Of a DNA stretch of 64,000 nt, positions 8,394 to 53,665 are shown piece after piece (within the stretch, counting starts at the first letter, position 1; each line of letters starts with the position of its first letter). Below the pieces are notes generated by a model, which ran no database searches, had not been told where the DNA came from, and saw only the letters and a program-made list of their open reading frames with translations. The translations under genes and the position numbers were made by a program. Location: the NCBI GenBank assembly GCA_041490825.1, contig JBGPTW010000011.1, positions 2,903 to 66,902 on the forward strand, given 5' to 3'. The stretch is from Candidatus Methylomirabilia bacterium (GTDB taxonomy: Bacteria > Methylomirabilota > Methylomirabilia > Rokubacteriales > CSP1-6).

Positions 8394-8893
8394 TGCGCTT
8401 CGTCGCGTTCGCCCTTCTCCTTGCGCTCGTCGCGCTTCCGCTGGCCGTTCTGCCGTCGCTGCCGCTCGCCTGGCTCGCCGTTCCGGGGTTCATCATCGGC
8501 GTCGTGGGAGTGATTGCGCTGTCCGTGCCCCTGGTGACGGCGGGCGCCGCGCTCGCGTTGATCGAATACACGCTCGCGCTCACGATCACCAAAACCCCCG
8601 TTGACGTCGTCACCGCAGCCGGATTCGGCGCGGCGGTCTTCCTTCTCCTCCAGCTCGTTCACTTCGCCGGCCGCGTTCACGGCGCTACGATCGGCTCCGC
8701 CGTCATCGCCTCGCAGATCCGCCACTGGCTGGCGATCGTGGGTATCGCTTCCGCGGTCACGATCGTGCTGACCATCGGCGCGCCGGCGGTCCGGCTCGCG
8801 CTGACGGGCGTGCCGCTGCCGCTCGTCGTCGTCGCCGGCGCGCTGGGCGCTCTGGTGACGATCGGCGGCGTCATCGCACTCGCGAGGCGATGA
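8393..8893 (+). CDS. hypothetical membrane protein
   Basis: Highly hydrophobic ORF; ATG 8393 overlaps the upstream stop. Confidence 0.65.
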   Translation: MRFVAFALLLALVALPLAVLPSLPLAWLAVPGFIIGVVGVIALSVPLVTAGAALALIEYTLALTITKTPVDVVTAAGFGAAVFLLLQLVHFAGRVHGATIGSAVIASQIRHWLAIVGIASAVTIVLTIGAPAVRLALTGVPLPLVVVAGALGALVTIGGVIALARR

Positions 8894-30236: not shown

Positions 30237-31601
30237 TCAAGCCGGCTTCACGGCGTCCATCAGCGCGTAGAAGCCCTCGGCCAGCGTCGGGTGAATGTAG
30301 ACGGCGCCCTCGAGCACCGTGTACGGCAAGCCGGCGCGCATGACGATCGCGAGCGCCTGGATGAGCTCACCGCCCTCGACGGCGACGATACCGGCTCCGA
30401 GGATCTTGTCGCTGGCCGCATCGACGACGACTTTCATCAGCCCCATCGTCTCGTCGCGCTCGATGGCCCGCGCCACCCACGACATCGGGATCGTACCGAT
30501 CTTCAGCCGGTGGCCCGCCGCGCGCGCCTGCTTCTCCGTCATTCCGACGCGGCCGACTTGCGGGTCGGTGAAGACGGCATACGGAACGATGCGGTCCTCG
30601 GTCGTGAGGTTCGCACCGTCGAGGTTGGCGTGGAGGATCTGGTAGTCGTTGTACGAGATGTGCGTGAAGGCGGGTCCGCCCTTCACGTCGCCGATCGCCC
30701 AGATTCCTGGCACGCTCGTCTCCAGGCGACCGTTCACCTTGATGAACCCGCGGTCGTCGACGGCGACGCCGGCCTTGTCGAGTCCGAGGTCGTCGGTATT
30801 CGGTCGTCGTCCCGTCGCGACGAGGAGGTGGGTTCCGGAGATCGTCCGGGTCCCGCGGGGACTCTTCACCCGCAGCGCGATGCCGCCCGTGCGGGGCTCC
30901 ACGCGCGTCGTGGTCGCATCGAGGACGAAGGCGATGTCCTCGGCCTCGAGCGCCTTCTGCAGCGCGCCGGCGACGTCGGGATCTTCGAGCGGAAGGATCT
31001 GCGAGCCACGGTGCACGACGGTGACGCGGCTCCCGAAGCGACGGAACATCTGTCCGAATTCCAGCCCGATGTAGCCGCCGCCGAGAACGACGAGGTGCCG
31101 CGGCACCTCGGTCAGCTCCATGATGGTTGCGTTCGTGAGATAGCGGGCTCCCTCGAGTCCCTCGATCGACGGGACCTGGGGCCGCGTGCCGGTGTCGATG
31201 ACGATCGTCTCGCTCTCGAGCGTCTGGCCGTTCACTTCGATCGCGTGCGGTGCGACGAAGCGCGCATGACCGCGGTGGAGCTCGAGACTCGGGCGCTGAT
31301 CGATTTTCTGCTGCTGGCCCGAGCGAAACTGCTCGACGATCGCCCGCTTGCGCTCGACGACACGGCCGAGGTCGACCGCGACCCGCCCGGTCACCACGCC
31401 CCATCGACGGGCGGCGCGGGCGTAGTGCGCGACCTGCGCCGAGGCGACCATCGTCTTCGTCGGCGTGCAGCCGGTGTTGATGCAGGTGCCGCCGAGGTGT
31501 TCACGCTCGATCAGGGCGACCCGCCCGCCCCGATCCGCCAGGGCGTGCGACAGCGGGTTGCCGCCCTGGCCCGAGCCGATCACGATCGCGTCGTACTTCA
31601 G
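30237..31601 (-). CDS. flavoprotein disulfide oxidoreductase (mercuric reductase-like family)
   Basis: YDAIVIGSGQGG, GGTCINTGCTPTK, GGGYIGLE, HPTLAE; start uncertain (CTG 31601 or GTG 31583). Confidence 0.88.
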   Translation of the reverse strand: MKYDAIVIGSGQGGNPLSHALADRGGRVALIEREHLGGTCINTGCTPTKTMVASAQVAHYARAARRWGVVTGRVAVDLGRVVERKRAIVEQFRSGQQQKIDQRPSLELHRGHARFVAPHAIEVNGQTLESETIVIDTGTRPQVPSIEGLEGARYLTNATIMELTEVPRHLVVLGGGYIGLEFGQMFRRFGSRVTVVHRGSQILPLEDPDVAGALQKALEAEDIAFVLDATTTRVEPRTGGIALRVKSPRGTRTISGTHLLVATGRRPNTDDLGLDKAGVAVDDRGFIKVNGRLETSVPGIWAIGDVKGGPAFTHISYNDYQILHANLDGANLTTEDRIVPYAVFTDPQVGRVGMTEKQARAAGHRLKIGTIPMSWVARAIERDETMGLMKVVVDAASDKILGAGIVAVEGGELIQALAIVMRAGLPYTVLEGAVYIHPTLAEGFYALMDAVKPA

Positions 31602-32227
31602 GAGGGACGCTTCGATGTCGAGCCCACCGGCGGGGGCGCGAACTCCTTGGCGCGCATCTTCGCGACCAAGTCGTCATACGAGGACGTGCGGATGATCTTG
31701 TTGAACTGGGTCCGGTAGTTCGAGATGAGGCTCATGCCCTCGATCACGACGTCGTAGACGACCCAGCGGTCGCCCTTGTGCTCCATGCGGTAATCGATCG
31801 GGACCTCCGTGCCCTTCTTCGTGAGGATCTTCGTGTGCACGGTGGCCTGCTCGCCTTCGAGCGCATCGCCCGTGTACGCGACCTTCTCACCGGTGTACTG
31901 CTCGATCCTCGAGATGTAGCTCTGCTCGAGGAGATCGGCGAAGAGCCGCGTGAACTCTTCGCGCTGCGCGGGCGTGCGCTGCTGCCAGTGCGGCCCGAGG
32001 CTGCGCTTGGCGGTCTCCTGAAAATCGAAGATCTTGCCGACCACTTCGCGGATGGCTTGCCGTTCGGCGGGGCTGCCGCGGTCGGGACGATCGAGGATCC
32101 GGATCACTTCGTCGACCTGCTGTCGCAGTTGATTGCTCGGAGCTCCCGCGCGCGCGTCGCGAGGCGCCACGAGCAGCAACGCGAGCGCTGCGAAGAGCAG
32201 GCAGGTCCATCGACGTTCGAGCATCAT
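31598..32227 (-). CDS. mlaC: MlaC/Ttg2D family periplasmic lipid-binding protein
   Basis: FDFQETAKRSLGPHW, YDVVIEGMSLISNYRTQF; SD AGGAGGAG. Confidence 0.88.
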   Translation of the reverse strand: MMLERRWTCLLFAALALLLVAPRDARAGAPSNQLRQQVDEVIRILDRPDRGSPAERQAIREVVGKIFDFQETAKRSLGPHWQQRTPAQREEFTRLFADLLEQSYISRIEQYTGEKVAYTGDALEGEQATVHTKILTKKGTEVPIDYRMEHKGDRWVVYDVVIEGMSLISNYRTQFNKIIRTSSYDDLVAKMRAKEFAPPPVGSTSKRPS

Positions 32228-32267
32228 GTGGACTCCTCCTGGCCGACTCGGGTTTCTCATTCGTACG

Positions 32268-32282
32268 GCAATGCGTATGCCA
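32268..32282 (-). promoter_or_regulatory. sigma54 (-24/-12) promoter candidate for mlaC
   Basis: Minus strand TGGCATACGCATTGC matches TGGCAC-N5-TTGC, 40 bp upstream of the ATG. Confidence 0.6.
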
Positions 32283-32305
32283 GCCAGCCAGGCGTTGTAG
32301 CTAAT

Positions 32306-33328
32306 TCAACGAGCGGGAGGAGAGGCCATCGGGGACGCTTCCGGTTGGTCGGATCTGATCCGTAACGCCCCGATCGCAATGGAGAGCACGCCGCCGACGA
32401 CGATTCCGATCGTCGCGATGCCACTGTTCACGGCAAGGACTGATAGTCCCGTCAGGGCGTTTCCTATGTTGCAGCCGAGTGCGAAGGTGCCGCCCACGCC
32501 CATGAGCAGGCCGCCGCCGAGTCTGCGCGCACCTTCCGTCCGGGACGGCAGGCGCCAGGACACCGGGCCTCGCACACGCGCGCTCAGAAACGTCCCGACC
32601 GGCAACCCGATCAGCATGACCGTCCCCCAGTTCAATGCAGTGGGGCGGGCGAAGATGACGACGTTGACCAGCGACCGGGCGGGACCGGTGATGGAGAGGC
32701 CCCAGTTCCACCCCGCAAAAGCACCCGTGAGCCAGGCGAGAACGCCAACGGCGCCGAGCGCCAGGCCGGTCACTGCCCATGGCCAGTGCGTCGTCTGCTC
32801 ACTCGGCCGGCGCAGGAGCGTCAGGAGCGCGATGATCAACGCCACGCCGGCGGCGACGGCGATCCAGGTCGAGACCCCGAACAACTCGGGGAGCGACGCG
32901 CTGATGTCCGGCGCGCCTTCGGATGGACTCAGCCACTCATTCACCGCGGCAAGCGGCCATCGCGCCGTGAGCGTAGCGCCTGCCGCAAAGCCCACCGCGG
33001 CGACCGTCGCTCCGCCGCTTCCGGTTCCGACGCGGGACCATATGGACGTCGCGCAGCCTTTCGCGAGGACCATCCCGATTCCGAACACGAGGCCCCCGAT
33101 GAATGCCGCGGCGACCGCGACCGGTGGCATCGGGATCTCGAGCCATCCGAGCTCGCCGAGCGTGTTCACGATGGCGAGCTGCACGCCAAGGGCGACCAGG
33201 TAGGCGCGGAGCGACGCGCCCGGTCGCCGCGCCACGATTTCTCGGAGCGCGGAGTGCATGCAGAAGTCGCCGCGGTGCACGACGACGCCGAGGAGCACGC
33301 CAACGAGGAAGCCGGGAAAGATCAGCAC
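32306..33328 (-). CDS. YeeE/YedE family sulfur/thiosulfate transporter
   Basis: HRGDFCMH, GMVLAKGC, GGTFALGCNIGNALTG conserved Cys motifs; start approximate. Confidence 0.85.
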   Translation of the reverse strand: MLIFPGFLVGVLLGVVVHRGDFCMHSALREIVARRPGASLRAYLVALGVQLAIVNTLGELGWLEIPMPPVAVAAAFIGGLVFGIGMVLAKGCATSIWSRVGTGSGGATVAAVGFAAGATLTARWPLAAVNEWLSPSEGAPDISASLPELFGVSTWIAVAAGVALIIALLTLLRRPSEQTTHWPWAVTGLALGAVGVLAWLTGAFAGWNWGLSITGPARSLVNVVIFARPTALNWGTVMLIGLPVGTFLSARVRGPVSWRLPSRTEGARRLGGGLLMGVGGTFALGCNIGNALTGLSVLAVNSGIATIGIVVGGVLSIAIGALRIRSDQPEASPMASPPAR

Positions 33329-36446: not shown

Positions 36447-37703
36447 TCAGCTCCGGGCGGGCGTGGTCGCGAGCACCGGCGTCGCCGGCGTCCCCGCTGT
36501 CGCGGGCTCCTGGCGCTCGCCGTGACCGTTCGATCCTGTCTCGCAGGCGCCGCCGGCGCCCTGGCGGTGGATCGACAGATCTGTGATCGTCGGGGACTTG
36601 CCGCAGAGCGGGCAGTTCGGATCGCGGCGCAGCTTCACTTCGCGGAACCGCATGCCGAGGGCGTCGTAGGTCAGCAGACGTCCGATCAACGGGTCACCGA
36701 TGCCGAGCACCAGCTTCACGGTTTCCGTCGCCTGCACCATCCCGACCACTCCTGGGAGCACGCCCAGGACGCCAGCCTCGCTTCAGCTGGGGACGAGCCC
36801 CGGCGGCGGTGGCGTGGGATAGAGGCAGCGATAGCAGGGACCCTGGTTCGGCGCAAAGACCGTCGCCATGCCTTCGAACTGGAAGATCGAGCCGTGGACG
36901 TTCGTCTTGCCCGCCAGGTAGCACGCGTCGTTGACGAGGTAGCGCGTCTCGAAGTTGTCCGAGCCGTCGACGATGAGATCGTAGTCACGGATGACGTCCA
37001 TCACGTTGTCGACGTCGATGCGCATCGGCAGCGGAATCACCGTCACGTCCGGGTTCAGCGCGCGAATCGTCCGCGCGCCCGACTCCACCTTCGGTTTGCC
37101 GACGTCGGCCGTCGTGTGGAGGACCTGTCGCTGCAGATTCGTGATGTCGACGACGTCGCCGTCCATGAGCCCCAGCGTGCCGACACCGGCCGCGGCGAGA
37201 TAGAGGGCCGTCGGCGAGCCGAGCCCCCCGGCGCCGATCAGCAAGACCTTCGAGCGCAGGAGCTTGCGCTGGCCCTTGTCGCCGACTTGCGGCAGCAGGA
37301 AGTGCCGGCTGTAGCGCTGGATCTGGTCCGGCGTCATCGGGATCTCGCGAACGACCGGGAGCCCCGACTGCAGCCACTTCTGGTAACCGCCCCGGAGGTT
37401 GATGACGTTCTGGTAGCCGAGCTCCTTCAACTGCGTGGCCGCCAGCACTGACCGCAAGCCCGTCTGGCAGTAGAGAACGATGGTCGTCGCAGGATCGCTG
37501 ACGGCCGTGCCGATCCTGAACTCGAGGAATCCGCGACTGATGTTGGACGCGGCCTCGATGTGGCCGTCCCGGTACTCGTCCGGGTCGCGGACATCGATCA
37601 CGGTGACCGGCTCGCCCGACTGGAGGCGCCGCTGCAGATCCGCCGGGCCTTCCTCGGGCACGACCTGGCGAGCTTCCGCCAGCATTTCCTTCAACGTTTT
37701 CAT
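36447..37703 (-). CDS. moeB: rhodanese-MoeB/ThiF fusion, predicted selenoprotein (in-frame TGA at 36785-36783)
   Basis: Rhodanese YCQTGLRS, GAGGLGS, DITNLQRQ, CYRC, PPPPGLVPS-TGA-SEAGVLGVLPG, CPLC; both halves are in one frame; 418 aa with Sec307. Confidence 0.85.
36750..36769 (-). promoter_or_regulatory. bacterial SECIS-like hairpin of moeB
   Basis: TCCTGGG-CGTGCT-CCCAGGA, a perfect 7-bp stem starting 13 nt after TGA, with G at loop position 2. Confidence 0.6.
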
Positions 37704-37710
37704 GCGGCCG

Positions 37711-37738
37711 ATATTACCCCCATTCCCGGTCGAGTCAA
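37711..37738 (-). promoter_or_regulatory. sigma70-like promoter of moeB (leaderless transcript predicted)
   Basis: TTGACT, 16 bp, TAATAT, 7 nt, ATG; no SD. Confidence 0.6.
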
Positions 37739-37842
37739 ACGAGACGCCGCCCAGTTCAGCAGCCTTCCGCGGCTCGGAGGGGCTTGCTATACTGGCGAAA
37801 CTTCCGCCGACTCGTTCGCATACTCGTGAGGGGATTGTCTCA

Positions 37843-38907
37843 GTGAAAGGCTTGATTCTATCCGGAGGGCGCGGCACCCGCCTCAGACCGATCACGTTCA
37901 CCTCCGCGAAGCAGCTCGTCCCGGTCGCGAACAAGCCCATCCTCTTCTACGGGATCGAGGCGCTGGCAGCGTCGGGCATTCGGGACATCGGCATCGTGGT
38001 CGGCGATACGCATCAGGAGATCCGTGATGCGGTCGGGGACGGCTCTCGCTTCGGGATCCGCGCGACCTATCTGCAGCAGGAAGCGCCGCTCGGCCTGGCG
38101 CACGCGGTGCTCATCTCCGAAGCGTTCATGGCGGGCGAACCGTTCGTCATGTACCTCGGCGACAACGTGATCCGGGAATCCCTCGGTCCGCTGGTCGAGC
38201 GCTTCAGCCGCGAGGCGCCGAACGCCCAGATCTTCCTGGCGCGCGTGCCGAATCCCCAGCAGTTCGGTGTCGCCGAGCTCGGTCCCGACGATCGCATCGT
38301 CAGGCTCGTCGAGAAGCCGGCCAAGCCACCGTCGGATCTGGCGCTCGTCGGCGTGTACATGTTCGATCGAAGCGTCTTCGACGCCGTCAAGGCCATCAAG
38401 CCGTCGGCTCGCGGTGAGCTCGAGATCACCGACGCCATCCAGTGGCTGATCGATCACGGCAAGACCGTGCGCCCGTTCGTGATCAGCGGCTGGTGGAAGG
38501 ACACCGGGAAGCTCGAAGACATGCTCGAGGCGAACCGGATCATCCTCGACGCCATGGAGCGTCGCATCGACGGCGACGTGGTCGCGTCCGAGATCGTCGG
38601 CAAGGTGACGATCGAAAGCGGCGCCAAGGTCGTCGAGAGCACGATCCGGGGCCCCGCGATCATCGGCCGCGGCGCCACGATCGAGCACGCCTACATCGGG
38701 CCGTTCACGTCGATCGGCGACGGTGTCGTCGTGCGCGGAAGCGAGATCGAGCACTCGATCGTGCTGGAAGGCTCGAGCCTCACGGACATCGACGCGCGCA
38801 TCGAGTCGAGCTTGATCGGTCGCAACGTCACCATCTACCGATCCGACGCGAAGCCGAAGTCCTACAAGCTCATGATCGGCGACCGCTCGGATATCGGGCT
38901 TATTTAA
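37843..38907 (+). CDS. rfbA: glucose-1-phosphate thymidylyltransferase (long form)
   Basis: KGLILSGGRGTRLRPIT, KQLVPVANKP, SARGELEITDA, GWWKDTG; hexapeptide-like tail. Confidence 0.93.
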   Translation: MKGLILSGGRGTRLRPITFTSAKQLVPVANKPILFYGIEALAASGIRDIGIVVGDTHQEIRDAVGDGSRFGIRATYLQQEAPLGLAHAVLISEAFMAGEPFVMYLGDNVIRESLGPLVERFSREAPNAQIFLARVPNPQQFGVAELGPDDRIVRLVEKPAKPPSDLALVGVYMFDRSVFDAVKAIKPSARGELEITDAIQWLIDHGKTVRPFVISGWWKDTGKLEDMLEANRIILDAMERRIDGDVVASEIVGKVTIESGAKVVESTIRGPAIIGRGATIEHAYIGPFTSIGDGVVVRGSEIEHSIVLEGSSLTDIDARIESSLIGRNVTIYRSDAKPKSYKLMIGDRSDIGLI

Positions 38908-41771: not shown

Positions 41772-44700
41772 ATGACGTGCCAGCAGTGCCGGTTCGAGAA
41801 TCCCGCCGGGATGCGCTTTTGCGGGCAGTGCGGCGCCCCGCTCGCGCTCCGTTGCCCGCAGTGCGGAGGAGAGGTCCCGCCTCAGTTCAAATTCTGCGGG
41901 CAGTGTGGCGCGAGTCTCGCGCCCGCGCCGGCGCCAGCCGCGCCGGCGCCAGCCGCGCCGGCGCCAGCCGCAACGGCGGCGACCGTCCCGACCGTGTCAC
42001 CGGCGTCACGCCCGGCCGTCACGGCGGTCGCTCCGTCGCCCGGCATCGCCAGCTATACGCCGAAGCACCTGGCCGACAAGATTCTCAAATCGCGATCGGC
42101 GCTCGAAGGGGAACGGCGGCAGGTGACCGTGCTCTTCGGCGACGTCGCCGGCTTCACCACGCTCGCCGAGAAGCTCGATCCCGAAGAGGTCCACCGGATC
42201 ATCAACCATTGCTTCGAGCTGATCACCGCCGAGGTGCATCGCTTCGAGGGCACGATCAATCAGTACACGGGCGACGGGATCATGGCGCTGTTCGGAGCGC
42301 CGATCGCCCACGAGGACAGCCCGCGGCGCGCCGTCCACGCCGCGCTGGGAATCCAGCGCGCGCTGCGCGACTACGCCAAGGAGCTCGAGGCGGAGCGCGG
42401 GCTGACAGTGCAGATGCGCATCGGACTCAACACCGGGCCCGTGGTCGTCGGCAGGATCGGCGACGACTTGCGCATGGACTACACCGCGGTCGGTGACACC
42501 ACGAACCTCGCGGCCCGGATGCAGCAGATCGCGCGGCCGGGCAGCGTGCTGGTGAGCGACGCGACGCACCGGGTGATCGGCGGGTTCTTCGAGACGCTCG
42601 ATCTCGGCGAAGTCCCGATCAAGGGGCACACGCCCGTGCGCGCCTGGGAAGTGTTGCGGGCGCGCGGCATGCGCTCGCGCCTCGACATCGCCGCCGAGCG
42701 TGGACTTACGCCGCTCATCGGTCGCGACCGTGAAGTCTCGACGCTGCTCGACCGTTTCCGCGACGCGAAGGCCGGCCGCGGCCAGGTCGTGTTTCTCGCC
42801 GGCGAGGCCGGGATCGGCAAGTCGCGGCTGCTGCTGGAGTTCCGTCGCCGCCTGGCGGAGGCCGGTGAAAGCGTCACGTGGCTCGAAGGCCAGTGCGTGT
42901 CGTTCGGCCAGTCCATCCCCTTCCTGCCCGTCGTCGATCAGCTGCGCAGGAACTTTGCGATCGAGGAGCTCGACGGCGAGCCCGAGATCATCGCGAAGAT
43001 CGAGCACGGGATGCGGCGCATGGGGCAGCTCGAGCCGCACATTCCGTACGTGCGGTTTCTTCTGTCGGTGGACCCGGGCGACCCGGCCATCGCGGCGATG
43101 GATCCGCTCGCGCGCCGGCGCAAGGTGTTCGATGCGGTCCGCGCGCTGGCCGTAAGAGGCGCTACTCTCAAGCCCGTCGTCTTCGTGTTCGAGGATCTGC
43201 ACTGGGTGGACACGAGCAGCGAGGAGTATCTCGGTGCGCTGATGGACTCCGTCGCGGGGGCGGCGATCGTGCTGGTGATGACGTATCGCGTCGGTTACGC
43301 GCCCCCGTTCGGTGGCCGCAGCTTCCACACGACGCTGACCCTGCAGAACCTCACCGCGGAGGAGACGCTCGCGATGGCGGGGCGGATCCTCGGGACGGAC
43401 CAGTTCCCCGAGCAGGTCAAGGCTGCGCTGATGGACAAGGCCGAGGGCGTCCCGCTGTTCGTCGAGGAAGTGACCAAGACGCTTCTCGATCTCGGCGTGC
43501 TCCGGCGAGAGGGCGCGGGGCTGGCCGTCGCGAAGGGACTCAGCGAGGTGAGCGTGCCCGACACGATGCAGGGCATCATCATGGCGCGGCTCGATCGCCT
43601 CGGCGACGCCGGCAAGCGCACCGTGCAGCTCGCGTCGGTGATCGGCCGGCGATTCCTCGTGCGCCTGCTCGACCGCATCGGCGGCATGCGCGAGCAGCTC
43701 CACGGCCTGCTGGCCGAGCTGAAGGCGCTGGAGATCATCTACGAGCAGGGGCTCCTGCCCGAGCCCGCGTACATCTTCAAGCACGCCGTCATTCAAGACG
43801 TCGCGTACAACAGCCTCCTGAAGGAGCGACGGCGTGAGCTGCATCGCGCCGTCGGTGACGCGATCGAGGAGCTGTACGCCGACCGGCTCTCCGAGCACCA
43901 CGAGGAGCTGGCCCACCACTACGTCAACGGCGAGCAGTGGGCCAAGGCCTTCGACTACCTCGTGAAATCGGGCGACCGCGCCAAGGACGCCTACGCCAAC
44001 CAGCTGGCGCTCGACTTCTACGCCCGCGCCCTCGACGTCGCGTCGCGCACCTCGCCCGCGCTGACGCCCTGGCAAGTGATGGACGTCCATCAGCGGCGCG
44101 GGCGCGTCTGGCTGTTGCTCGCAAAGTACCAGGAGGCGATCGCCGAGTCCCAGCGGATGCTCGAGGTCGCCCGCGCCGCCGGCGATCGGCACGGTGAGGG
44201 CGAAGCGCTGGTGGACCTGGCGCTCGAGCATTACATGACGTTCGCGTCCGAGAACATGCCGCTCACGAAGCGCCTGGCGGAGGAAGCGCTCGCGATCGCC
44301 GAGCAGACCGGCGACCATCCCGTGCTGGCGAAGGCGCGCACCTATCTGGCCTTCCTCGATCAGGTCGAGGGAAATCTCGTCAGCGCGGACCGATTCCTGG
44401 AGGAATCGCTCAGGATCAGCGAGGCGGAGGGGCTGAAGGAATCGATCGCGCAGAACGTGATGTGGCTGAGCGCGCACGCCGAGTGGCGTGGAGACTTTCC
44501 GAGGGCGATCCAGCTCGCGCAGAAAGCCTCGGCGGCGGCGGCGGAAATCCACGACGGCTTCTTCGAGCTCATGGCGATCGCCTTCGGCTGCCTGGCGGAG
44601 GGAGGTGCCGGACATTACGCCGAGGCGCTCGAGCTGATCAACGACGGCTTGACGAAGGCCCGTGACCGGAATGCCGCGTTCTTCCAGGGCCGGCTCGGCA

Positions 44701-45380
44701 ACAGCCTCGGGTGGGTGTACCAGGAGCTCGGGGATTTCCGGCGGGCGCACGAGCACGACCGCGAGAGCGTCGACCTCGGCCAGCGGATCAAGAACGCGAA
44801 CGTCGAGGTGAGCGCAACGATCAATCTGGGTCTGGATTATTTGAACCTTGGCGAGCCGCGCAAAGCCCTGGCGTTGCTCGAAGCGACCCAGACCCGCGTC
44901 GACAAGCTGGCGTTCGGGGCCCATCGCTGGCGCTGGTCCATCCACACGGCCGTCTATCTCGCCGAAGTGCTCCGAGCGCTCGACGAGCCGGAGCGGGCTC
45001 TCGTGCAGGTGGAGCCGGCGCTGCTCGAGGCTCGTCGGACGGGGTCGATGAAGTACGTGGGAATGTGCCACGCGCTTCGCGGCGAGCTGCAGATGACGGG
45101 ACGGCAGTGGAGCGACGCCGAGGGCGGCTTGCGCGAAGCGCTCGAGATCGCTCAGCGCATCGGCTATCCGAAGCTCCTCTGGCAAGCCGCCGACGGTCTG
45201 GCGCGCGCGCTCGCCGCCCAGGGACGGATGCAGGACGCGTTCGAGGCTTCTCGAGTGGCCGTCAGCGCGATCGAGGCCACCGCGGCACGCGCGCCCGAGC
45301 CGGCGCTCCGCGACTCCTTCATGAACTGGCCGCGCGTGCAGGCCGCGCTCGAGACCGCCGAGCGGCTGCGCCGGGCCTGA
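41772..45380 (+). CDS. double zinc ribbon + class III adenylate/guanylate cyclase + AAA ATPase + TPR protein
   Basis: CxxC pairs; ERRQVTVLFGDVAGFT, YTGDGIMALFGAP, TAVGDTTNLAARM; GEAGIGKS; FEDLHW; TPR-like tail. Confidence 0.93.
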   Translation: MTCQQCRFENPAGMRFCGQCGAPLALRCPQCGGEVPPQFKFCGQCGASLAPAPAPAAPAPAAPAPAATAATVPTVSPASRPAVTAVAPSPGIASYTPKHLADKILKSRSALEGERRQVTVLFGDVAGFTTLAEKLDPEEVHRIINHCFELITAEVHRFEGTINQYTGDGIMALFGAPIAHEDSPRRAVHAALGIQRALRDYAKELEAERGLTVQMRIGLNTGPVVVGRIGDDLRMDYTAVGDTTNLAARMQQIARPGSVLVSDATHRVIGGFFETLDLGEVPIKGHTPVRAWEVLRARGMRSRLDIAAERGLTPLIGRDREVSTLLDRFRDAKAGRGQVVFLAGEAGIGKSRLLLEFRRRLAEAGESVTWLEGQCVSFGQSIPFLPVVDQLRRNFAIEELDGEPEIIAKIEHGMRRMGQLEPHIPYVRFLLSVDPGDPAIAAMDPLARRRKVFDAVRALAVRGATLKPVVFVFEDLHWVDTSSEEYLGALMDSVAGAAIVLVMTYRVGYAPPFGGRSFHTTLTLQNLTAEETLAMAGRILGTDQFPEQVKAALMDKAEGVPLFVEEVTKTLLDLGVLRREGAGLAVAKGLSEVSVPDTMQGIIMARLDRLGDAGKRTVQLASVIGRRFLVRLLDRIGGMREQLHGLLAELKALEIIYEQGLLPEPAYIFKHAVIQDVAYNSLLKERRRELHRAVGDAIEELYADRLSEHHEELAHHYVNGEQWAKAFDYLVKSGDRAKDAYANQLALDFYARALDVASRTSPALTPWQVMDVHQRRGRVWLLLAKYQEAIAESQRMLEVARAAGDRHGEGEALVDLALEHYMTFASENMPLTKRLAEEALAIAEQTGDHPVLAKARTYLAFLDQVEGNLVSADRFLEESLRISEAEGLKESIAQNVMWLSAHAEWRGDFPRAIQLAQKASAAAAEIHDGFFELMAIAFGCLAEGGAGHYAEALELINDGLTKARDRNAAFFQGRLGNSLGWVYQELGDFRRAHEHDRESVDLGQRIKNANVEVSATINLGLDYLNLGEPRKALALLEATQTRVDKLAFGAHRWRWSIHTAVYLAEVLRALDEPERALVQVEPALLEARRTGSMKYVGMCHALRGELQMTGRQWSDAEGGLREALEIAQRIGYPKLLWQAADGLARALAAQGRMQDAFEASRVAVSAIEATAARAPEPALRDSFMNWPRVQAALETAERLRRA
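41925..41969 (+). repeat. 15-bp in-frame tandem repeat (3 copies) in the linker
   Basis: GCGCCGGCGCCAGCC repeated three times, encoding APAPA. Confidence 0.85.
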
Positions 45381-46478: not shown

Positions 46479-46715
46479 ATGGGTGATTCACCAATTCAGG
46501 GCTATGAATATCTCGTCACGAATCCCGAACGCCTAGGCGGAAAACCAGCGATCAAGGGAACGCGCTTTTCCGTCTCCTTCATTCTTGCTTGCCTCGCCGA
46601 GGGAATGTCGTACGACGACATCGTGCGTGACTACTCAGAATTTCCGCGTGAGAGCCTCGCCGAGGCGCTTCGCTATGCGGCCGAAGTGACCGACCGGCGT
46701 GATGTGGCTGCTTGA
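46479..46715 (+). CDS. DUF433 family antitoxin
   Basis: NPERLGGKPAIKGTRFSVSFIL, GMSYDDIVRDY. Confidence 0.9.
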   Translation: MGDSPIQGYEYLVTNPERLGGKPAIKGTRFSVSFILACLAEGMSYDDIVRDYSEFPRESLAEALRYAAEVTDRRDVAA

Positions 46716-47037
46716 TGTCAACCTCCCGAATGGTTTGCTGCCCCTGCTCCAGAGCCTTGGGATTTCGTGTGACACGACGATCCGACGCGGCTGGCGCGGG
46801 CTGACCAACGGGGAGCTCGGGAGGGCGGCATACGAAGGGGGCTTCCGGGTCATTCTCACGCGGGATCGTGACTTCGGAGGCACAGCGGGAAGCGTCTTGA
46901 TGCGGTTGCCCGACCTGGCGGTTGTTGTGGTGACGATCCCTCAGGCCCGTGAAGCCGCATATCTGGAAGCCTTTGAAGCGCGTTGGCGCGAGCATGCGAT
47001 CGCTCCGGTAGCGGGATCCATTATCGAGTGGCCGTGA
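46699..47037 (+). CDS. DUF5615 PIN-like toxin
   Basis: WLLDVNLP, RVILTRDRDFG; overlaps the DUF433 gene. Confidence 0.85.
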   Translation: MMWLLDVNLPNGLLPLLQSLGISCDTTIRRGWRGLTNGELGRAAYEGGFRVILTRDRDFGGTAGSVLMRLPDLAVVVVTIPQAREAAYLEAFEARWREHAIAPVAGSIIEWP

Positions 47038-47206: not shown

Positions 47207-48613
47207 ATGAAGGGCGCCGCCGACACGTATCAGGGCCGCGGGCTCATCGCCGACCCGATCCATCGGTACATCCTCTACACGCGCCCCGGGGGGATGGCCG
47301 GGGAGGCGACCGAGCAGGACCTGATCGATACGTCGTGGGTGCAGCGGCTGCGGCGCATCCCGCAGCTCCAGTCGGCGCGCTGGGTGTTTCCGGCGGCCGA
47401 GCACAGCCGTTTCCAGCACTCGCTCGGCGCCATGCACCTCGCCGGGCGGTTTGGCCAGCAGTTGTATCCGTCGTTGCGCGCGCACTTCGACGACGCGCCG
47501 TCGCCGGCGCTGATCGAGGAGCTGCTGCGCGTGTCTGGCCTGCTCCACGACGTCGGCCACGGGCCGTTCGGCCATTTCTTCGACGACAACTTTCTCGTCG
47601 ACTACGACCTGACGCACGAGCTGGTGGGGCAGCGCATCATCCGCGAAGAGCTCGCGGACATCCTGCGCGAGCTGCGACGCAGCCCGAGCGGCGCGTTCGC
47701 TGCAGGCGAGGCGGTCGATCCCGAGTGGATCTGCTACCTGATGGGCAAGAGCTACACGCAGCCGCTCGAGTCACACCCGCGGTGGCTGCCGTTCCTCAAG
47801 CCACTGCTCTCGGGCGTCTTCACCGCTGACAACATGGACTACGTGCTGCGTGACGCCTACATGTGCGGGGTGGCGGTGGGACCGATCGACGTCGAGCGCA
47901 TCATCTATTATTCGTTCTTCTCCGAGCACGGGTTAACGCTCGACCGGGGCGGGCTGCAGGCGTTCATCATGTTCCTGAATGCCCGCTTCTACATGTACAC
48001 GAACGTCTACTATCACCGCACGACGCGCGGGATCGACATGCACCTGAAGGAGATCTTCCGCGACACGATGCGGCTCGTGTTCCCGTACGACCTCCGCAAG
48101 GACCTGCACCCGTACCTCCATCTGACCGAATGGACGCTGCTGGAAGAGGTCGGCCGCTGGCACGACAGCGACGACCCCGAGAAGAAGGCGCTCGGAAGCG
48201 AGTGGCGGCAGATCCTGGACCGCAAGCTTCGGTGGCGGATGTCGCACGAGGTCGTGCTCGATCTGTTCGAGCCGCGGCGCGGCCACAGTTTCCTCGACGC
48301 CGACACCGTCGAGCGGAGGGTGCGGACCTTCCTGCCGGCCCACCTCAAGGCCTTCCCCTTCAAGATCGACATGGCGTTGCAGGACCCGCGGCCGCTCAAT
48401 CCGTTGCAGATGGGCGATCGTCAGATCTACGTCTACGACTCCGCGGCCGGCATCGTCGCGAAAGAGCCCCTGACCGAGATCTTGAAATATCTCCCCGGCA
48501 AGGTCGCGCAGTGCCGGATCTTCGCCGCCAGTCACGAGCACGATGCCCAGCTGGCGCGGGCGCTCGAGCGCGCGCTGACCGAAGAGCCGGCGTCGATCGT
48601 CACGAATGTGTAA
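47207..48613 (+). CDS. HD-domain phosphohydrolase (SAMHD1/YdhJ-like dNTPase family)
   Basis: VQRLRRIPQL, HSRFQHSLG, LLHDVGHGPFGH, DNMDYVLRD, VYYHRT. Confidence 0.88.
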   Translation: MKGAADTYQGRGLIADPIHRYILYTRPGGMAGEATEQDLIDTSWVQRLRRIPQLQSARWVFPAAEHSRFQHSLGAMHLAGRFGQQLYPSLRAHFDDAPSPALIEELLRVSGLLHDVGHGPFGHFFDDNFLVDYDLTHELVGQRIIREELADILRELRRSPSGAFAAGEAVDPEWICYLMGKSYTQPLESHPRWLPFLKPLLSGVFTADNMDYVLRDAYMCGVAVGPIDVERIIYYSFFSEHGLTLDRGGLQAFIMFLNARFYMYTNVYYHRTTRGIDMHLKEIFRDTMRLVFPYDLRKDLHPYLHLTEWTLLEEVGRWHDSDDPEKKALGSEWRQILDRKLRWRMSHEVVLDLFEPRRGHSFLDADTVERRVRTFLPAHLKAFPFKIDMALQDPRPLNPLQMGDRQIYVYDSAAGIVAKEPLTEILKYLPGKVAQCRIFAASHEHDAQLARALERALTEEPASIVTNV

Positions 48614-48630
48614 GAGTGCCTCGACCCAGA

Positions 48631-48659
48631 TTGACAGGCGTGACACCCCCGGGGACAAT
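48631..48659 (+). promoter_or_regulatory. sigma70-like promoter of the TlpA-peroxiredoxin pair
   Basis: TTGACA, 17 bp, GACAAT, 9 nt before ATG 48669. Confidence 0.6.
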
Positions 48660-48668
48660 GCCTCACTC

Positions 48669-49196
48669 ATGAGGTTGCCACTCTCGCGACTCGTGCTCGT
48701 CCTCGCGGCATGCGCCTTCGCCTTCACCGGCCAGCGTGCCGTGGCGCAAGACTCCGACGTCTTCATCTTGAAGGAGAAGACGCCGGCACCCGCGTTCTCG
48801 CTCCCCGACCTCTCGGGCCAGACCGTCAAGTCCACGGCATTCGCCGGGAAGGTCGCGGTGCTGAGCTTCGGCGCGACCTGGTGCCCCACCTGCACCAGCG
48901 AGCTCAAGAGCCTCGAGAATCTCCAGGCGAAGTTTCCGAAAGATCTCGTGGTCTACTTCGTGGCGCTGGACGGTCGCGGCGACAAGGACGTCAAGCCGTA
49001 CATGGAAAAGAACGGGCACAGGATCCCGACGCTGATCGACCCGAAGATGGCGGTGGCGCGCGAGCACGGGATCCGCTGGATCCCGGTCACCGTGGTGCTC
49101 GACCGTACCGGCGTGATCGTCGGCCGGGCGATCGGCCCGCGTGAATGGGACGGCAAAGAAGCGCTCGACTTCATCCAGCCGCTGATCAAGCGATGA
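48669..49196 (+). CDS. secreted TlpA-like thiol:disulfide oxidoreductase
   Basis: Signal peptide; APAFSLPDL; SFGATWCPTCTSE; IPVTVVLDRTG. Confidence 0.88.
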   Translation: MRLPLSRLVLVLAACAFAFTGQRAVAQDSDVFILKEKTPAPAFSLPDLSGQTVKSTAFAGKVAVLSFGATWCPTCTSELKSLENLQAKFPKDLVVYFVALDGRGDKDVKPYMEKNGHRIPTLIDPKMAVAREHGIRWIPVTVVLDRTGVIVGRAIGPREWDGKEALDFIQPLIKR

Positions 49197-49224
49197 GGAT
49201 TCGATCCGTCACAGGAGGATGCGC

Positions 49225-49779
49225 ATGAGACCTATGCGGTTCGCGATGACCCTGCTCGTGGTGAGCATCATGTTCGCGCTGGCGCTTGCCTCGGCGCTCC
49301 CGGCCGCGGCGCTCGAGGTCGGTGACAAGGCGCCCGACTTCAAGCTGCCGGCGACGACGAAGCCGGAGCTGACGCTGTCCGAATTCGCCGGAAAGAAGAA
49401 CGTCGTGCTCTTCGGCTTCATCGGAGCGTTTACCCCGACGTGAACGCGCGAGGTCGCGGCTTTCCAGCTTGATCTCCCCAAGTTCGAAAGCCGTAACGCC
49501 CAGGTCGTGGGCATCAGCTCGGATTTCCAGCCCGCCAGCGCCGCGTGGAGCGAGAAGATGGGACTCACGTTCCCGCTCGTGAGTGACATGGCGCGCACCA
49601 CGCTCGACGCGTACGGGTTTCTCGACACCGACCCGAAGAGCCGCCTCTACCGCTACGCGAAACGTGCGTACGTCATCGTCGACAAGACGGGCGTCGTTCG
49701 CTACAAAAAGATCCTGGCGACTCCGCGTGATCTCGTGACGGATGACGAGCTTCTCGCGGAACTCGACAAGCTGAAGTAG
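49225..49779 (+). CDS. secreted peroxiredoxin (AhpC/TSA, BCP-like), predicted selenoprotein (in-frame TGA at 49441-49443)
   Basis: VGDKAPDFKL...GAFTPT-TGA-TREVAAFQ...VVGISSD...FPLVSD...RAYVIVDKTG in one frame; TGA at the peroxidatic Cys position. Confidence 0.85.
49457..49493 (+). promoter_or_regulatory. bacterial SECIS-like hairpin of the peroxiredoxin
   Basis: CGGCTTTC-C-AGCTTG-ATCTCCC-CAAGTT-C-GAAAGCCG; stem starts 13 nt after TGA. Confidence 0.6.
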
Positions 49780-49787
49780 GTCACGGA

Positions 49788-49825
49788 CTGTGGGCTCGTC
49801 GGCTGAGCGGCCGATGAGCTCACAG
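49788..49825. terminator. hairpin between convergent genes (terminator candidate)
   Basis: CTGTGGGCTC-GTCGGC-TGAGCG-GCCGAT-GAGCTCACAG; no clear U-tract. Confidence 0.4.
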
Positions 49826-49830
49826 CAGTC

Positions 49831-50820
49831 TCACCGCTTCTCGCGCAGCTTCTCCAGCGATGCTTTGAAGTCCTCGCAGGGGTCCGCGTCGTCGACGCGC
49901 GGGGTGAACCAGACGTAGTCCACCGGCAACGCCGGCCGTCCGAAGCCGGCCGCGTAGTCCTCAGGCTTCCTCGTCTCGCGCTCGACTTCGAGGAATGCCA
50001 TCGTCACCACGATCGCTCCCGGTCGCGCGATCCGCAGATACACCGGAACGCCACGGTCCTTGCGCACGTGACCGAAGCCGGCGATCAGCACGGCGCCGTC
50101 GGGCTCCGACCCCGTGGCCAGGCTGTCCGCGATGTGCGCGTCCCGCACGCGCTGTGTCGTCACCAGGCTGGCGATCGTCGCGTCGCTCCCATGACCACAG
50201 TGCGCGGCCTTGATCTCCTCGGCCATCTCGGCCTGCGTGTCCGCCGCAAGCGGTCGTTCGAGTCCGTAGCGCGCGACGAGCGCTGGATCGAGCGCCGCCA
50301 CGCCGTCGCGCCGCACGGCCGTGACCGTCGATTGCGCCAGGTTCGTCACGATGATGCGCAGCCGCGCCTTGAGCGCCGTGTCCGCGATGGGCTGATAGAG
50401 CGACCAGTCCGGCCAGCCCGAATGCTTCCAGTCCACGGCGTCGGCGAGGCCTGCGGCATCTCCGGGCGCCGTCGCCAGGTACCGCGCGAGCGCCGGTGCC
50501 TGCGCGACGGTCAGCATCTCGAAGCCGATTGCCGGCCGCCGGCCCGCCGCCACCATCCCGACCAGAAGCCACGCCTGAAGCTGGTGATGGTCAGGATTGT
50601 CGTGCTTCTCTCCCAGCAGCACGAACCGGCCGCGCGCGAGTCGGTCGACCAGCGCGGACGGTGAGACGAAGCTCGCCGCCGCGACGTCCCAGATGCGGCC
50701 CGCGAGGACGTGATCACGGCCGAGCGTCGTGCGCCACGACGGAACCGGATCGGTGGCGGCCGCGGCAAGCAGCGCGGGTACGATGAGAACCGCAAGCCAG
50801 CCACGATGGGGGAGCGGCAT
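49831..50820 (-). CDS. ChaN family (heme/iron-regulated, DUF399) protein
   Basis: VLLGEKHDNPDHH, IGFEML, WKHSGWPDWSLYQPI, QRVRDAHIA, LIAGFGHVRKDRGVP; start 50820 or 50835. Confidence 0.85.
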   Translation of the reverse strand: MPLPHRGWLAVLIVPALLAAAATDPVPSWRTTLGRDHVLAGRIWDVAAASFVSPSALVDRLARGRFVLLGEKHDNPDHHQLQAWLLVGMVAAGRRPAIGFEMLTVAQAPALARYLATAPGDAAGLADAVDWKHSGWPDWSLYQPIADTALKARLRIIVTNLAQSTVTAVRRDGVAALDPALVARYGLERPLAADTQAEMAEEIKAAHCGHGSDATIASLVTTQRVRDAHIADSLATGSEPDGAVLIAGFGHVRKDRGVPVYLRIARPGAIVVTMAFLEVERETRKPEDYAAGFGRPALPVDYVWFTPRVDDADPCEDFKASLEKLREKR

Positions 50821-50959
50821 GGAGTCAGGATGCACCGGAAGAGACCTGCGCGCCGGCGGAATAGCTGCGCGCCGTCACCGCCAGGACTAGAATCGGACGT
50901 CGTGCGAATTCGGAGCCGGCGGTCCGGGAGGACTGGCGGTCCGACATGAGGGACTCAGC

Positions 50960-52971: not shown

Positions 52972-53196
52972 ATGGCACGGATCAATCTCGAAATAGACGA
53001 CGACCTGAAGCGCCGGGCAAAAGTGAAAGCTGCGCAGGAGCAGCGGCCCCTCACGCAGGTGATCGAAGAGCTCCTCACCCACTGGGTGGAGGCCGGGGAT
53101 ACGGCCGCCAAGCGACGACGATTGCGGCTCGGAGTGCACAAGCTCGGCACGATCGGGACGCTGTCGCGCCGCGAGCTCTATGAAGATCTTCGTTGA
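52972..53196 (+). CDS. vapB: ribbon-helix-helix antitoxin
   Basis: RINLEIDDDLKRRAKVKAAQE; overlaps a PIN gene. Confidence 0.75.
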   Translation: MARINLEIDDDLKRRAKVKAAQEQRPLTQVIEELLTHWVEAGDTAAKRRRLRLGVHKLGTIGTLSRRELYEDLR

Positions 53197-53665
53197 TACC
53201 AATCTCTTCGTATATGCCGTCGACGCTCTGAGTCCCTTCCATCACGACGCGGGATCGTTCTTCGAATCGGTGGCGGAGCGCAACCTCGAACCGCACTACT
53301 CGAACCAGGTGCTCGGTGAGTTCTTCTCGGCCGTCACCAAGCGGGCTGCCCGTCCGCTGAGCCCCACGGTCGCCGCGCGGGAAGCGCTGCGCATGCTCCA
53401 GGCGACGCAGTTGGTGAGACTGCCGATCGACGATATCGCGATGAAGCTCACACTGGCGCTGGCCGGAAAGCATGGGCTGCGGGGCGTCGAGATTTTCGAC
53501 GCCCAGATCGTGGGGACCATGCTGAGCCACGGCGTCGAGGTCCTGTATACGGCCAATGTTCGGGACTTCGCTCGCTTCGACGAGATCGACGTCGTCAATC
53601 CCCTGTTGCCGGCCGGCCCGGGAACTCCACGCGTCGCCGAGAAACGCCGCCGGTATCGGCGGTGA
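53180..53665 (+). CDS. vapC: PIN-domain toxin
   Basis: IFVDTNLFVY, QVLGEF, IFDAQIVG, TANVRDF. Confidence 0.9.
   Translation: MKIFVDTNLFVYAVDALSPFHHDAGSFFESVAERNLEPHYSNQVLGEFFSAVTKRAARPLSPTVAAREALRMLQATQLVRLPIDDIAMKLTLALAGKHGLRGVEIFDAQIVGTMLSHGVEVLYTANVRDFARFDEIDVVNPLLPAGPGTPRVAEKRRRYRR

Follow-up and report, generated by a model that had tools for sequence, protein, structure and literature searches.

In a 64,000-nucleotide stretch of contig JBGPTW010000011.1 from a Candidatus Methylomirabilia bacterium (assembly GCA_041490825.1; this whole stretch is called the window here), two adjacent genes probably encode a periplasmic peroxide-reducing pair, in which a peroxiredoxin (Prx) carrying a single selenocysteine (Sec, or U) is recycled by a TlpA-like protein. 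The upstream gene is tlpA-like, and the downstream gene, prx, is interrupted by an in-frame TGA at 49441 which, judged from the aligned sequences, is a genuine Sec codon and not an error. What the pair represents is an exported, Cys-free, Pro-less, TlpA-coupled variant of two known things, the Sec-peroxiredoxins and the envelope TlpA-peroxiredoxin pathway, and the best reading, by analogy, is of a selenium version of the ScsB-TlpA-PprX pathway of Caulobacter. The export route of the same short name is written below as the Sec pathway. The features on which this account is built are:

48669-49196, + strand: tlpA-like gene of 175 aa (Pfam Redoxin 75.9 bits, AhpC-TSA 73.4 bits; Thioredoxin-like models match too)
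48669-48746, + strand: TlpA signal peptide MRLPLSRLVLVLAACAFAFTGQRAVA; the mature protein begins QDSDVF
49213-49218, + strand: Shine-Dalgarno AGGAGG, abutting the first ATG (49219) and 6 nt ahead of ATG 49225
49225-49779, + strand: selenocysteine peroxiredoxin gene; 184-aa precursor, U73, zero Cys, TAG stop at 49777-49779
49225-49311, + strand: Sec-pathway-type signal peptide of the peroxiredoxin, MRPMRFAMTLLVVSIMFALALASALPAAA, with predicted cleavage between AAA and LEVGDKAPDF
49432-49434, + strand: active-site Thr of T-x-x-U (motif and alignment)
49441-49443, + strand: UGA, presumably decoded as Sec, the predicted peroxidatic residue (TGA/TGC alternation at the aligned codon, structure alignment)
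49456-49494, + strand: SECIS-like (selenocysteine insertion sequence-like) hairpin in the coding sequence, beginning 12 nt past the UGA (folding and conservation)
49663-49665, + strand: conserved peroxiredoxin Arg in K-R-A-Y-V-I-V-D (invariant column R149 of alignment A1; aligns to AKRA of BCP structures)

The peroxiredoxin is spread over two open reading frames (ORFs), 49219..49443 (74 aa, ending at the TGA) and 49507..49779 (90 aa), which share one + frame. Translation of 49219-49779 meets a single internal stop (...GAFTPT-stop-TREVAAFQLDLPKFES...), and the read-through product around the TGA is ...VVLFGFIGAFTPT-stop-TREVAAFQLDLPKFESRNAQVVGISS.... A preliminary description of this DNA had joined a 75-aa and a 90-aa ORF through the TGA into a 184-aa peroxiredoxin that is free of Cys and carries the motif FTPT-U-TRE. 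On translation the join, the 90, the 184, the motif and the absence of Cys all stand, and the figure of 75 is corrected to 74 when counted from 49219 or to 72 from 49225. The ATG at 49225 is the likely start, because AGGAGG lies 6 nt upstream of it and the JGI gene call for the 5' part of prx, 72 aa long, begins there.

With U replaced by C, the product matches Pfam AhpC-TSA (PF00578) at 110.5 bits (E 7e-32, cut-off 26) over residues 34-162, a match that spans the TGA. Nearest among the solved structures are Sulfolobus Bcp4 (3hjp, E 1e-21), 2ywn, the BCP of Aeropyrum pernix and the AhpE of M. tuberculosis, and in the Sulfolobus and Aeropyrum structure alignments the TGA codon falls at the peroxidatic position (Cys, or Ser in the 3hjp mutant). 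The fold is assigned from these matches in sequence. No resolving Cys is present anywhere in the window's peroxiredoxin, and by its sequence it is of the BCP/AhpE-like, one-Cys (here one-Sec) type. As a one-Cys enzyme AhpE depends on an external reductant, and the mechanism proposed here is the same. The one-Cys BCP/AhpE proteins (AhpE 1xxu/1xvw; Bcp4 3hjp) are the closest structures by sequence (E 1e-21 to 4e-15), but these are Cys enzymes of the cytoplasm in which the motif Pro is kept, whereas the window's protein is predicted to be exported and has Sec, and Ile in place of the Pro. Many BCP/PrxQ members have a resolving Cys five residues past the peroxidatic one, and the window's protein has none.

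Both proteins are predicted to be exported. The best 10-residue Kyte-Doolittle window of the peroxiredoxin signal peptide scores 3.0, and 33/33 orthologs of clades A, B and C have a basic n-region, a hydrophobic core and small -3/-1 residues right before (L/V)xVGDKAPDF (clade A, with FIGAFTPT-U-TRE, is the clade of the window, and clade C, with Y[IV]xAFTxx-U-TQE, is its sister clade). The Cys count of the mature protein is 0 in all 33; the Cys homologs start 3-5 residues ahead of the domain and contain 2-4 cysteines. The earlier claim of a signal peptide on a Cys-free protein is borne out by these heuristics, both traits being kept in all clade A/B/C orthologs. The same description had placed a signal-peptide TlpA with WCPTC upstream, and this too holds, by motif, by Pfam matches and by conserved signal peptides in orthologs. 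The Cys codons of W-C-P-T-C lie at 48882-48884 and 48891-48893, and this CxxC pair contains the only cysteines of the mature protein. Its nearest solved structures are Geobacter 3kcm, ResA and TlpA 1jfu, with CcmG also among the relatives, and tlpA ends 28 nt ahead of the prx start.

Other assignments for these proteins were tried and rejected. Tat export was ruled out for both, as neither signal has an RR motif. A lipoprotein form of TlpA, considered for its lipobox-like LAAC, was discarded because the Cys is missing from most orthologous signals and the mature N-terminus is QDS[DS]VF. Identity with CcmG on the basis of WCPTC was likewise discarded, with a DsbE score of 37.7 against a cut-off of 123 and with WCSSC, WCASC or WCTSC in the orthologs.

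The in-frame TGA and its hairpin

Codons aligned to 49441 were surveyed in two samples, 80 loci of species-representative genomes and 80 metagenome loci. The codon is TGA in 55/80 of the genome loci, with TGC or TGT in the other 25/80, and it is TGA in 80/80 of the metagenome loci. The TGA loci, 135 in total, are independent, come from many assemblies and share 41-82% protein identity, a recurrence that chance by far does not account for. The 25 TGC/TGT loci belong to more distant, cytoplasmic homologs, and a neighbor-joining tree sets the Sec forms apart from the Cys forms. An alternation of TGA and TGC among orthologs, which the preliminary description had proposed to look for, is thus found, as a Sec/Cys swap at the peroxidatic position. 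Over the 60 nt past the TGA, entropy by codon position is 0.38, 0.32 and 0.80, and because variation concentrates at the third codon positions this segment appears to be translated. From these alignments we infer that Sec is also inserted in the source organism itself.

The codon is poorly represented in protein databases. A protein search returned 418 relatives, from which the best 120 clusters (P0001-P0120) were classified. Among these best 120 of 418, 62 are fragments of ~108 aa that start right past the codon, and 46 are full length with Trp at the codon (FTPTWTRE, FGGVWTSE, FTGTWTQE), the signature of a TGA called under code 4. Neither the fragments nor the Trp hits (62 + 46) have Cys at the codon, a few distant Cys forms are found among the other 12, and U is present in 0 of the best 120 clusters. 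The NCBI-sourced entries (e.g. P0003, P0025, P0106) are post-UGA fragments of 107-113 aa. Decoding of TGA as Trp, or a general read-through, was ruled out: TGA is the usual stop in the window, where it ends 30/40 confident ORFs, and the "W" proteins share their motifs with the TGA genome loci. Six in-frame-TGA candidates with coding-like flanks occur in the window, and only that at 49441 is real; those at 8891, 24421 and 56482 are ordinary stops after which the next gene follows, and two minus-strand candidates were set aside.

The long hairpin reported 3' of the UGA is confirmed at 49456-49494. It has a lower stem of 9 bp (49456-49464 with 49486-49494) and an upper stem of 6 bp (49466-49471 with 49479-49484), with C49465 and C49485 bulged between them and a 7-nt loop, AUCUCCC, at 49472-49478. 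In an 86-nt context it folds at -34.4 kcal/mol (z = -2.4), with 3/200 shuffles equally good. The hairpin stands at identical register in every member of the three closest clades, and in an alignment of clades A and B 96.5% of cells are paired, versus <=53% with the partner strand slid. Pair 22-48 is UA in 11, CG in 10 and UG in 4 of the 25 unique clade A sequences, and the sister clade has compensatory pairs at 21-48 (CG/UA) and 30-40 (UA/GC). On this alignment the covariation appears modest in amount and consistent. No peptide block of the family is more invariant than A-A-F-Q-L-D-L-P-K-F-E-S-R, which the hairpin encodes, and constraints on RNA and protein are confounded for that reason.

In acidobacterial relatives this offset is taken by an unrelated hairpin, GGCGUAUCAG-GCU-GAUAUCGCC. 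These Sec-peroxiredoxin loci (L034-L037, L040, L043, L045, L047, L050, L052, L056) share the motif YVLAFTGG-U-TKEL, and have one Cys in the mature part and no adjacent TlpA; their N-terminus is often joined to the domain by a long low-complexity linker rich in Pro, Ala and Gln.

Conservation of the TlpA-peroxiredoxin pair

When the neighbors within ~6 kb were clustered for 31 loci, the TlpA-like gene was the sole conserved one, and no further conserved operon member was found in that range. In clade A a TlpA with W-C-x-x-C lies directly upstream of prx in 11/11 genome or assembly loci and in 23/23 metagenome loci with upstream DNA (34/34). In clade C a TlpA is upstream in 20/20 genome loci and in 42/~45 informative metagenome loci (about 62/65), the clade C loci coming from metagenome-assembled genomes (MAGs) labeled Entotheonella, Burkholderiales, Gammaproteobacteria and Planctomycetota. 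Two loci (L166, L167) have the order reversed, with a W-U-P-T-C TlpA downstream of a Sec-peroxiredoxin of motif VIQAFTPT-U-TQEI.

The TlpA of clade C is itself a selenoprotein, with W-TGA-x-x-C (RFWATW-U-x-x-C; loci L013-L033 and L042, e.g. L013:5107-5964, and L117-L171), and because the upstream TlpA also contains Sec, the clade C loci are predicted to be two-selenoprotein operons. A conserved and covarying hairpin, UGCCCUC-CGUGCA-GAGGGCA, follows the UGA of this TlpA by ~22 nt. The TlpA of the window is the TGC version and is without a hairpin of the clade C type.

The neighbor-joining tree joins the paired clades A and C as sisters and has as their outgroup an exported clade without the pairing (FVRAFGGV-U); the pairing with TlpA appears to have had a single origin. 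Flanking genes vary by locus, and no locus is syntenic past the pair, which occurs under Rokubacteria, Acidobacteriota, Myxococcota, Entotheonella, Planctomycetota and Burkholderiales labels. The closest relatives of the peroxiredoxin are labeled Rokubacteria, Acidobacteriota and Myxococcota/"Deltaproteobacteria", and the window organism has 67% G+C. Conservation of the pair, another check named at the outset, therefore extends across several phylum labels. Two of the MAGs with a Burkholderiales-type cassette (L022, L024) are titled "Bordetella parapertussis" and "Chitinophaga pinensis" and look mislabeled.

Proposed relay and alternatives

In the proposed relay, the product of the first gene would be a Sec-pathway-exported, soluble TlpA/ResA-like reductase and that of the second an exported BCP/PrxQ-AhpE-like Sec-peroxiredoxin, with insertion of Sec at UGA 49441 aided by the hairpin at 49456-49494. 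The selenolate of U73 would reduce H2O2 or an organic hydroperoxide and would itself become a selenenic acid. Because the Cys-free mature peroxiredoxin has no resolving residue, the first Cys of TlpA would then attack to give an intermolecular selenenylsulfide, which the second Cys of TlpA would resolve into reduced peroxiredoxin and oxidized TlpA. A transporter of the DsbD/CcdA/ScsB type, encoded elsewhere and fed by cytoplasmic thioredoxin, would finally re-reduce TlpA. A role for TlpA as the direct reductant is suggested by the conserved adjacency, the single origin of the pairing and the precedent in Caulobacter, and peroxidase activity of the peroxiredoxin is predicted from its sequence.

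The precedent bears on the relay from TlpA to Prx that was put forward in the preliminary description. In Caulobacter crescentus a transfer from ScsB to TlpA to PprX, an exported PrxQ-type peroxiredoxin, was shown experimentally, TlpA reducing the periplasmic peroxiredoxin (Cho et al. 2012, PMC3322552). The two systems share an exported BCP/PrxQ-type peroxiredoxin and an exported TlpA-type partner; electrons ultimately come from a DsbD-family transporter in Caulobacter and would do so in the proposed relay. They differ in that PprX is a Cys enzyme with PxxxTxxC intact and a resolving Cys, whereas the window's peroxiredoxin has Sec, no motif Pro and no resolving residue, and in that pprX (CC1673) and tlpA (CC2210) are not adjacent in Caulobacter, whereas the window's genes form a conserved cassette; the likeness to PprX is drawn from its description. 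The DsbD-type genes of Caulobacter are also unlinked, and none is seen in the window.

Several findings speak against this account of the pair and must be set beside it. With regard to decoding, selA, selB, selD and tRNA-Sec were found neither in the window nor in the contig from its start to window position 62135 (Pfam scans, JGI Pfam calls, ARAGORN), and ARAGORN found zero tRNA in the window and no tRNA-Sec in 86 loci (L001-L086). In JGI the contig is Ga0534150_0000217 of 3300053057, on which position 1 of the window falls at about 3299. The loop of the hairpin is without G as folded, G49471 joining it only if the closing G-C pair opens, and a bacterial SECIS is expected to be a stem-loop right 3' of the UGA whose small apical loop includes a G (PMC1088965). 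No Rfam family fits the hairpin, at the gathering threshold over the whole window or at E up to 10 over 48600-49800. The stem is invariant at most positions, which also code for conserved residues, and the covariation comes from few pairs.

With regard to the proteins, signal peptides were judged by heuristics only. No NCBIfam peroxiredoxin model reaches its cut-off on the window's peroxiredoxin (NF040737, the PrxU equivalog, 46 bits vs 270; PRK09437, the BCP equivalog, 55 bits vs 140), and the TlpA, ResA and DsbE equivalogs all stay under cut-off on its partner (ResA 69.5 vs 170, rhizobial TlpA 59.9 vs 230, DsbE 37.7 vs 123). The residue at -7 of the active site is Ile (I-G-A-F-T-P-T-U) and not the Pro of PxxxTxxC, which has been called absolutely conserved in peroxiredoxins (PMC3322552). 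The P-x-x-x-T-x-x-C motif named in the preliminary description is accordingly present in part, with the Thr and a distal Arg kept and the Pro replaced by Ile. With regard to the relay, deletion of pprX in Caulobacter gave no peroxide phenotype (PMC3322552). DsbD, CcdA and ScsB are encoded neither in the window nor in the contig from its start to window position 62135, nor do they recur beside the pair in other loci. Because TlpA is missing next to prx in clades B and D and in three clade C loci, it is not considered obligatory in cis.

Some of these points would suit a use of peroxide as an oxidant rather than its removal. In such a scheme the Sec-peroxiredoxin would be a peroxide sensor or oxidase through which H2O2 oxidizes TlpA and envelope clients, for disulfide formation or signaling; peroxide-driven oxidation of this kind has precedents in Orp1-Yap1 and PRDX4. 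The first two chemical steps would be identical to those above, and with no resolving residue the oxidizing equivalent must go to a partner, which is fixed in the operon. Deletion of pprX in Caulobacter is without peroxide sensitivity (PMC3322552), and no DsbD-type reductant gene is nearby. We nonetheless regard this scheme as unlikely, since TlpA/ResA/CcmG-type proteins are reductants held reduced by DsbD, ScsB or CcdA (PMC3322552), and no candidate client gene is conserved beside the pair.

Because the canonical active-site Pro is lost, the protein may also be read as a selenoprotein of peroxiredoxin fold that is not mainly a peroxidase and that acts on protein sulfenic acids, peroxynitrite or oxidized Se/S species. 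Clades A-D have Ile or Val at -7, where the Cys homologs, the other Sec forms and the solved structures have Pro, and clade B is also without the Thr (FGGV-U). One Cys form with an export signal, the only such form seen, occurs in the sister clade (P0073); its single Cys is the peroxidatic one and its Pro is restored (YPGAFTNAC), which, as one sequence, makes a link between the use of Sec and the loss of the motif Pro suggestive. In Caulobacter, PrxL, a peroxiredoxin-like envelope protein, had no detectable peroxidase activity (PMC3322552). This second possibility is improbable as well, however: the window's clade keeps the Thr, the distal Arg and the peroxidatic position, and the similarity to true BCP/AhpE peroxidases spans the whole domain.

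The role of the partner can be questioned in a similar way. The adjacent TlpA may serve another envelope pathway, such as cytochrome c or copper-center maturation, with a different reductant for the peroxiredoxin and with the adjacency reflecting co-regulation. Maturation of cytochrome oxidase involves TlpA homologs, and CcmG has the motif WCPTC as well. Bradyrhizobium TlpA is an example of the former (named in PMC3322552), a weak SCO1/SenC Pfam match of 33.6 bits is found, and DsbD's thioredoxin-like domain is able to reduce PprX (PMC3322552). However, the CcmG/DsbE, ResA and TlpA equivalogs are far under their cut-offs, no ccm, sco or cox genes are conserved nearby, the adjacency is held in two sister clades and also with inverted order, and the Cys/Sec switch of TlpA tracks the peroxiredoxin clade, all of which leaves this possibility with little likelihood. 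With the TlpA/ResA/CcmG (DsbE) proteins the window's TlpA shares the thioredoxin fold, the signal peptide and W-C-x-x-C, but it falls under all equivalog cut-offs and has no cytochrome-maturation context.

Finally, a TGA that is a real stop, by sequencing error, pseudogene formation or a split gene, leaving a 72-aa signal fragment with or without a reinitiated 90-aa fragment, is barely credible: gene callers do give two ORFs and Sec machinery is missing from the window, but the TGA recurs in 135 independent loci at 41-82% identity, the stretch from the TGA to the next start is conserved as protein with third positions varying most, Cys stands in for the TGA in homologs, and neither half is a thioredoxin fold alone.

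The two components of the proposed pair have a long history. The notion of a seleno-peroxiredoxin with a TlpA is supported, but it is less novel than the preliminary description implied, as Sec-peroxiredoxins and UxxC Prx-like/TlpA-like selenoproteins have both been catalogued since 2004-2008. The Sargasso Sea survey counted 43 Sec-peroxiredoxins and 22 UxxC Prx-like/TlpA-like sequences, and GOS counted 253 and 225; three Sec-peroxiredoxins are reported for Anaeromyxobacter, and a 2026 review relists both the Sec-peroxiredoxin and the UxxC families. The known Sec-peroxiredoxin family "Prx" (TxxU, PF00578/COG1225), of which PrxU of Eubacterium acidaminophilum is a characterized example, shares with the window's protein a peroxidatic Sec in T-x-x-U, a UGA with a hairpin, and widespread Cys homologs. 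The window's clade differs in being exported, Cys-free and tied to TlpA, with Ile or Val for the motif Pro, and its protein is not PrxU (NF040737, 46 bits vs 270). Cytoplasmic Sec forms from genomes of the Anaeromyxobacter type are found among the relatives (L070). As for the "Prx-like 1" and "UGC-containing TlpA" families of the Gladyshev/Zhang catalogues, the sister-clade TlpA is exactly such a UxxC protein; these catalogues list the UxxC families without a partner, and the window's TlpA is a Cys form with no hairpin.

Selenoprotein operons listed in the 2026 review are grdAB, prdBC, frh/hdr, Prx/SelW-like, Prx-like/AhpD-like, SAO and Tso. Neither this review nor the GOS paper mentions a pair of peroxiredoxin and TlpA, and neither these two nor the Sargasso paper mentions the periplasm or signal peptides; GOS has a single read with an adjacent Prx/Prx-like 2 pair. 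A full-text search for an exported Sec-peroxiredoxin together with TlpA brought up two papers, one on an algal selenoproteome and the other a review of antimicrobials, and a literature search on Rokubacteria and selenocysteine gave nothing relevant. The subfamily is widespread and systematically mis-annotated, and is not a categorical surprise.

The subfamily goes unseen in selenoproteome surveys and annotation pipelines, as shown by the 62 fragments, the 46 spurious Trp and the absence of U in the best 120 clusters. If the pair does reduce peroxide in the periplasm as we propose, encoded selenium use would be extended to an envelope enzyme of soil and freshwater bacteria that is free of cofactors and exported by the Sec pathway; formate dehydrogenase and [NiFeSe] hydrogenase, the periplasmic selenoenzymes known so far, are to our knowledge Tat-exported metalloenzymes. 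The clades also offer a natural comparison of Sec with Cys, in the form of Sec-Prx with Cys-TlpA (the window), Sec-Prx with Sec-TlpA (the sister clade) and, at least once, an exported Cys-Prx (P0073), and with it a testable link between Sec and the loss of an "invariant" peroxiredoxin Pro. In this coding sequence, moreover, the peptide block that is conserved best (AFQLDLPKFE) is at once the SECIS-like hairpin. A wider view, which we hold only tentatively and which falls a little short of being probable, is that the tlpA-prx cassette is a self-contained, horizontally spread, selenium-based envelope antioxidant module, in which a Pro-less one-Sec peroxiredoxin would be recycled by a dedicated TlpA through a selenenylsulfide or, in the sister clade with its W-U-x-x-C TlpA, through a diselenide. 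On that view it would be the first selenoprotein redox relay described outside the cytoplasm, encoded in many genomes by a two-selenoprotein operon, and one that annotation at present hides, as both of its genes come out truncated or mistranslated.

Transcription unit, flanks and other genes of the window

The limits of the transcription unit are marked by the following features:

47207-48613, + strand: HD + HD_assoc_2 phosphohydrolase, upstream flank; not conserved beside the pair elsewhere
48631-48659, + strand: promoter-like site TTGACA-17 nt-GACAAT, 10/12 matches; consensus match only
49788-49825, no strand assigned: perfect inverted repeat of 17 bp around a 4-nt loop (-33 kcal/mol), in the space where prx and the chaN-like gene converge
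49831-50835, - strand: ChaN/Cofac_haem_bdg protein (heme-binding, Tiki superfamily), convergent downstream flank; not conserved beside the pair elsewhere

The start of tlpA is placed at ATG 48669 because the orthologs all show a signal peptide followed by QDS[DS]VF. The JGI start at 48606, which overlaps the end of the HD-domain gene, was ruled out, as the extension is not conserved and overlaps the promoter-like site. This site is the sole one in 48400-50000, with 0.1 expected in shuffles, and lies within the 55-nt gap past the HD-domain gene, from where transcription would begin a few nt from the tlpA ATG. There is no Shine-Dalgarno before ATG 48669, and because the promoter-like site sits so close to the ATG the tlpA mRNA would be near-leaderless. 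The inverted repeat at 49788-49825 is terminator-like but without a U tract, and the terminator scan missed it because there is no T run.

Elsewhere in the window, a YeeE/YedE-type Sulf_transp protein adjoins a pyridine-nucleotide disulfide oxidoreductase, and a rhodanese-ThiF fusion is found a few kb from them (30237-33328 and 36783-37940, both on the - strand). YeeE/YedE is a listed selenoprotein family (GUxSG) in the 2026 review, and the window's Sulf_transp protein is a Cys form, with a G-C-A-T-S stretch at Cys113. From their domains these genes look like sulfur-trafficking, conceivably selenium-trafficking, genes. Two toxin-antitoxin-like pairs are present on the + strand, DUF433 with DUF5615 at 46479-47037 and a 74-aa protein with a PIN-domain protein at 52972-53665. 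A 1202-aa protein encoded at 41772-45380 (+ strand) combines zinc-ribbon (DZR), nucleotide cyclase (Guanylate_cyc), AAA_16 ATPase and TPR domains.

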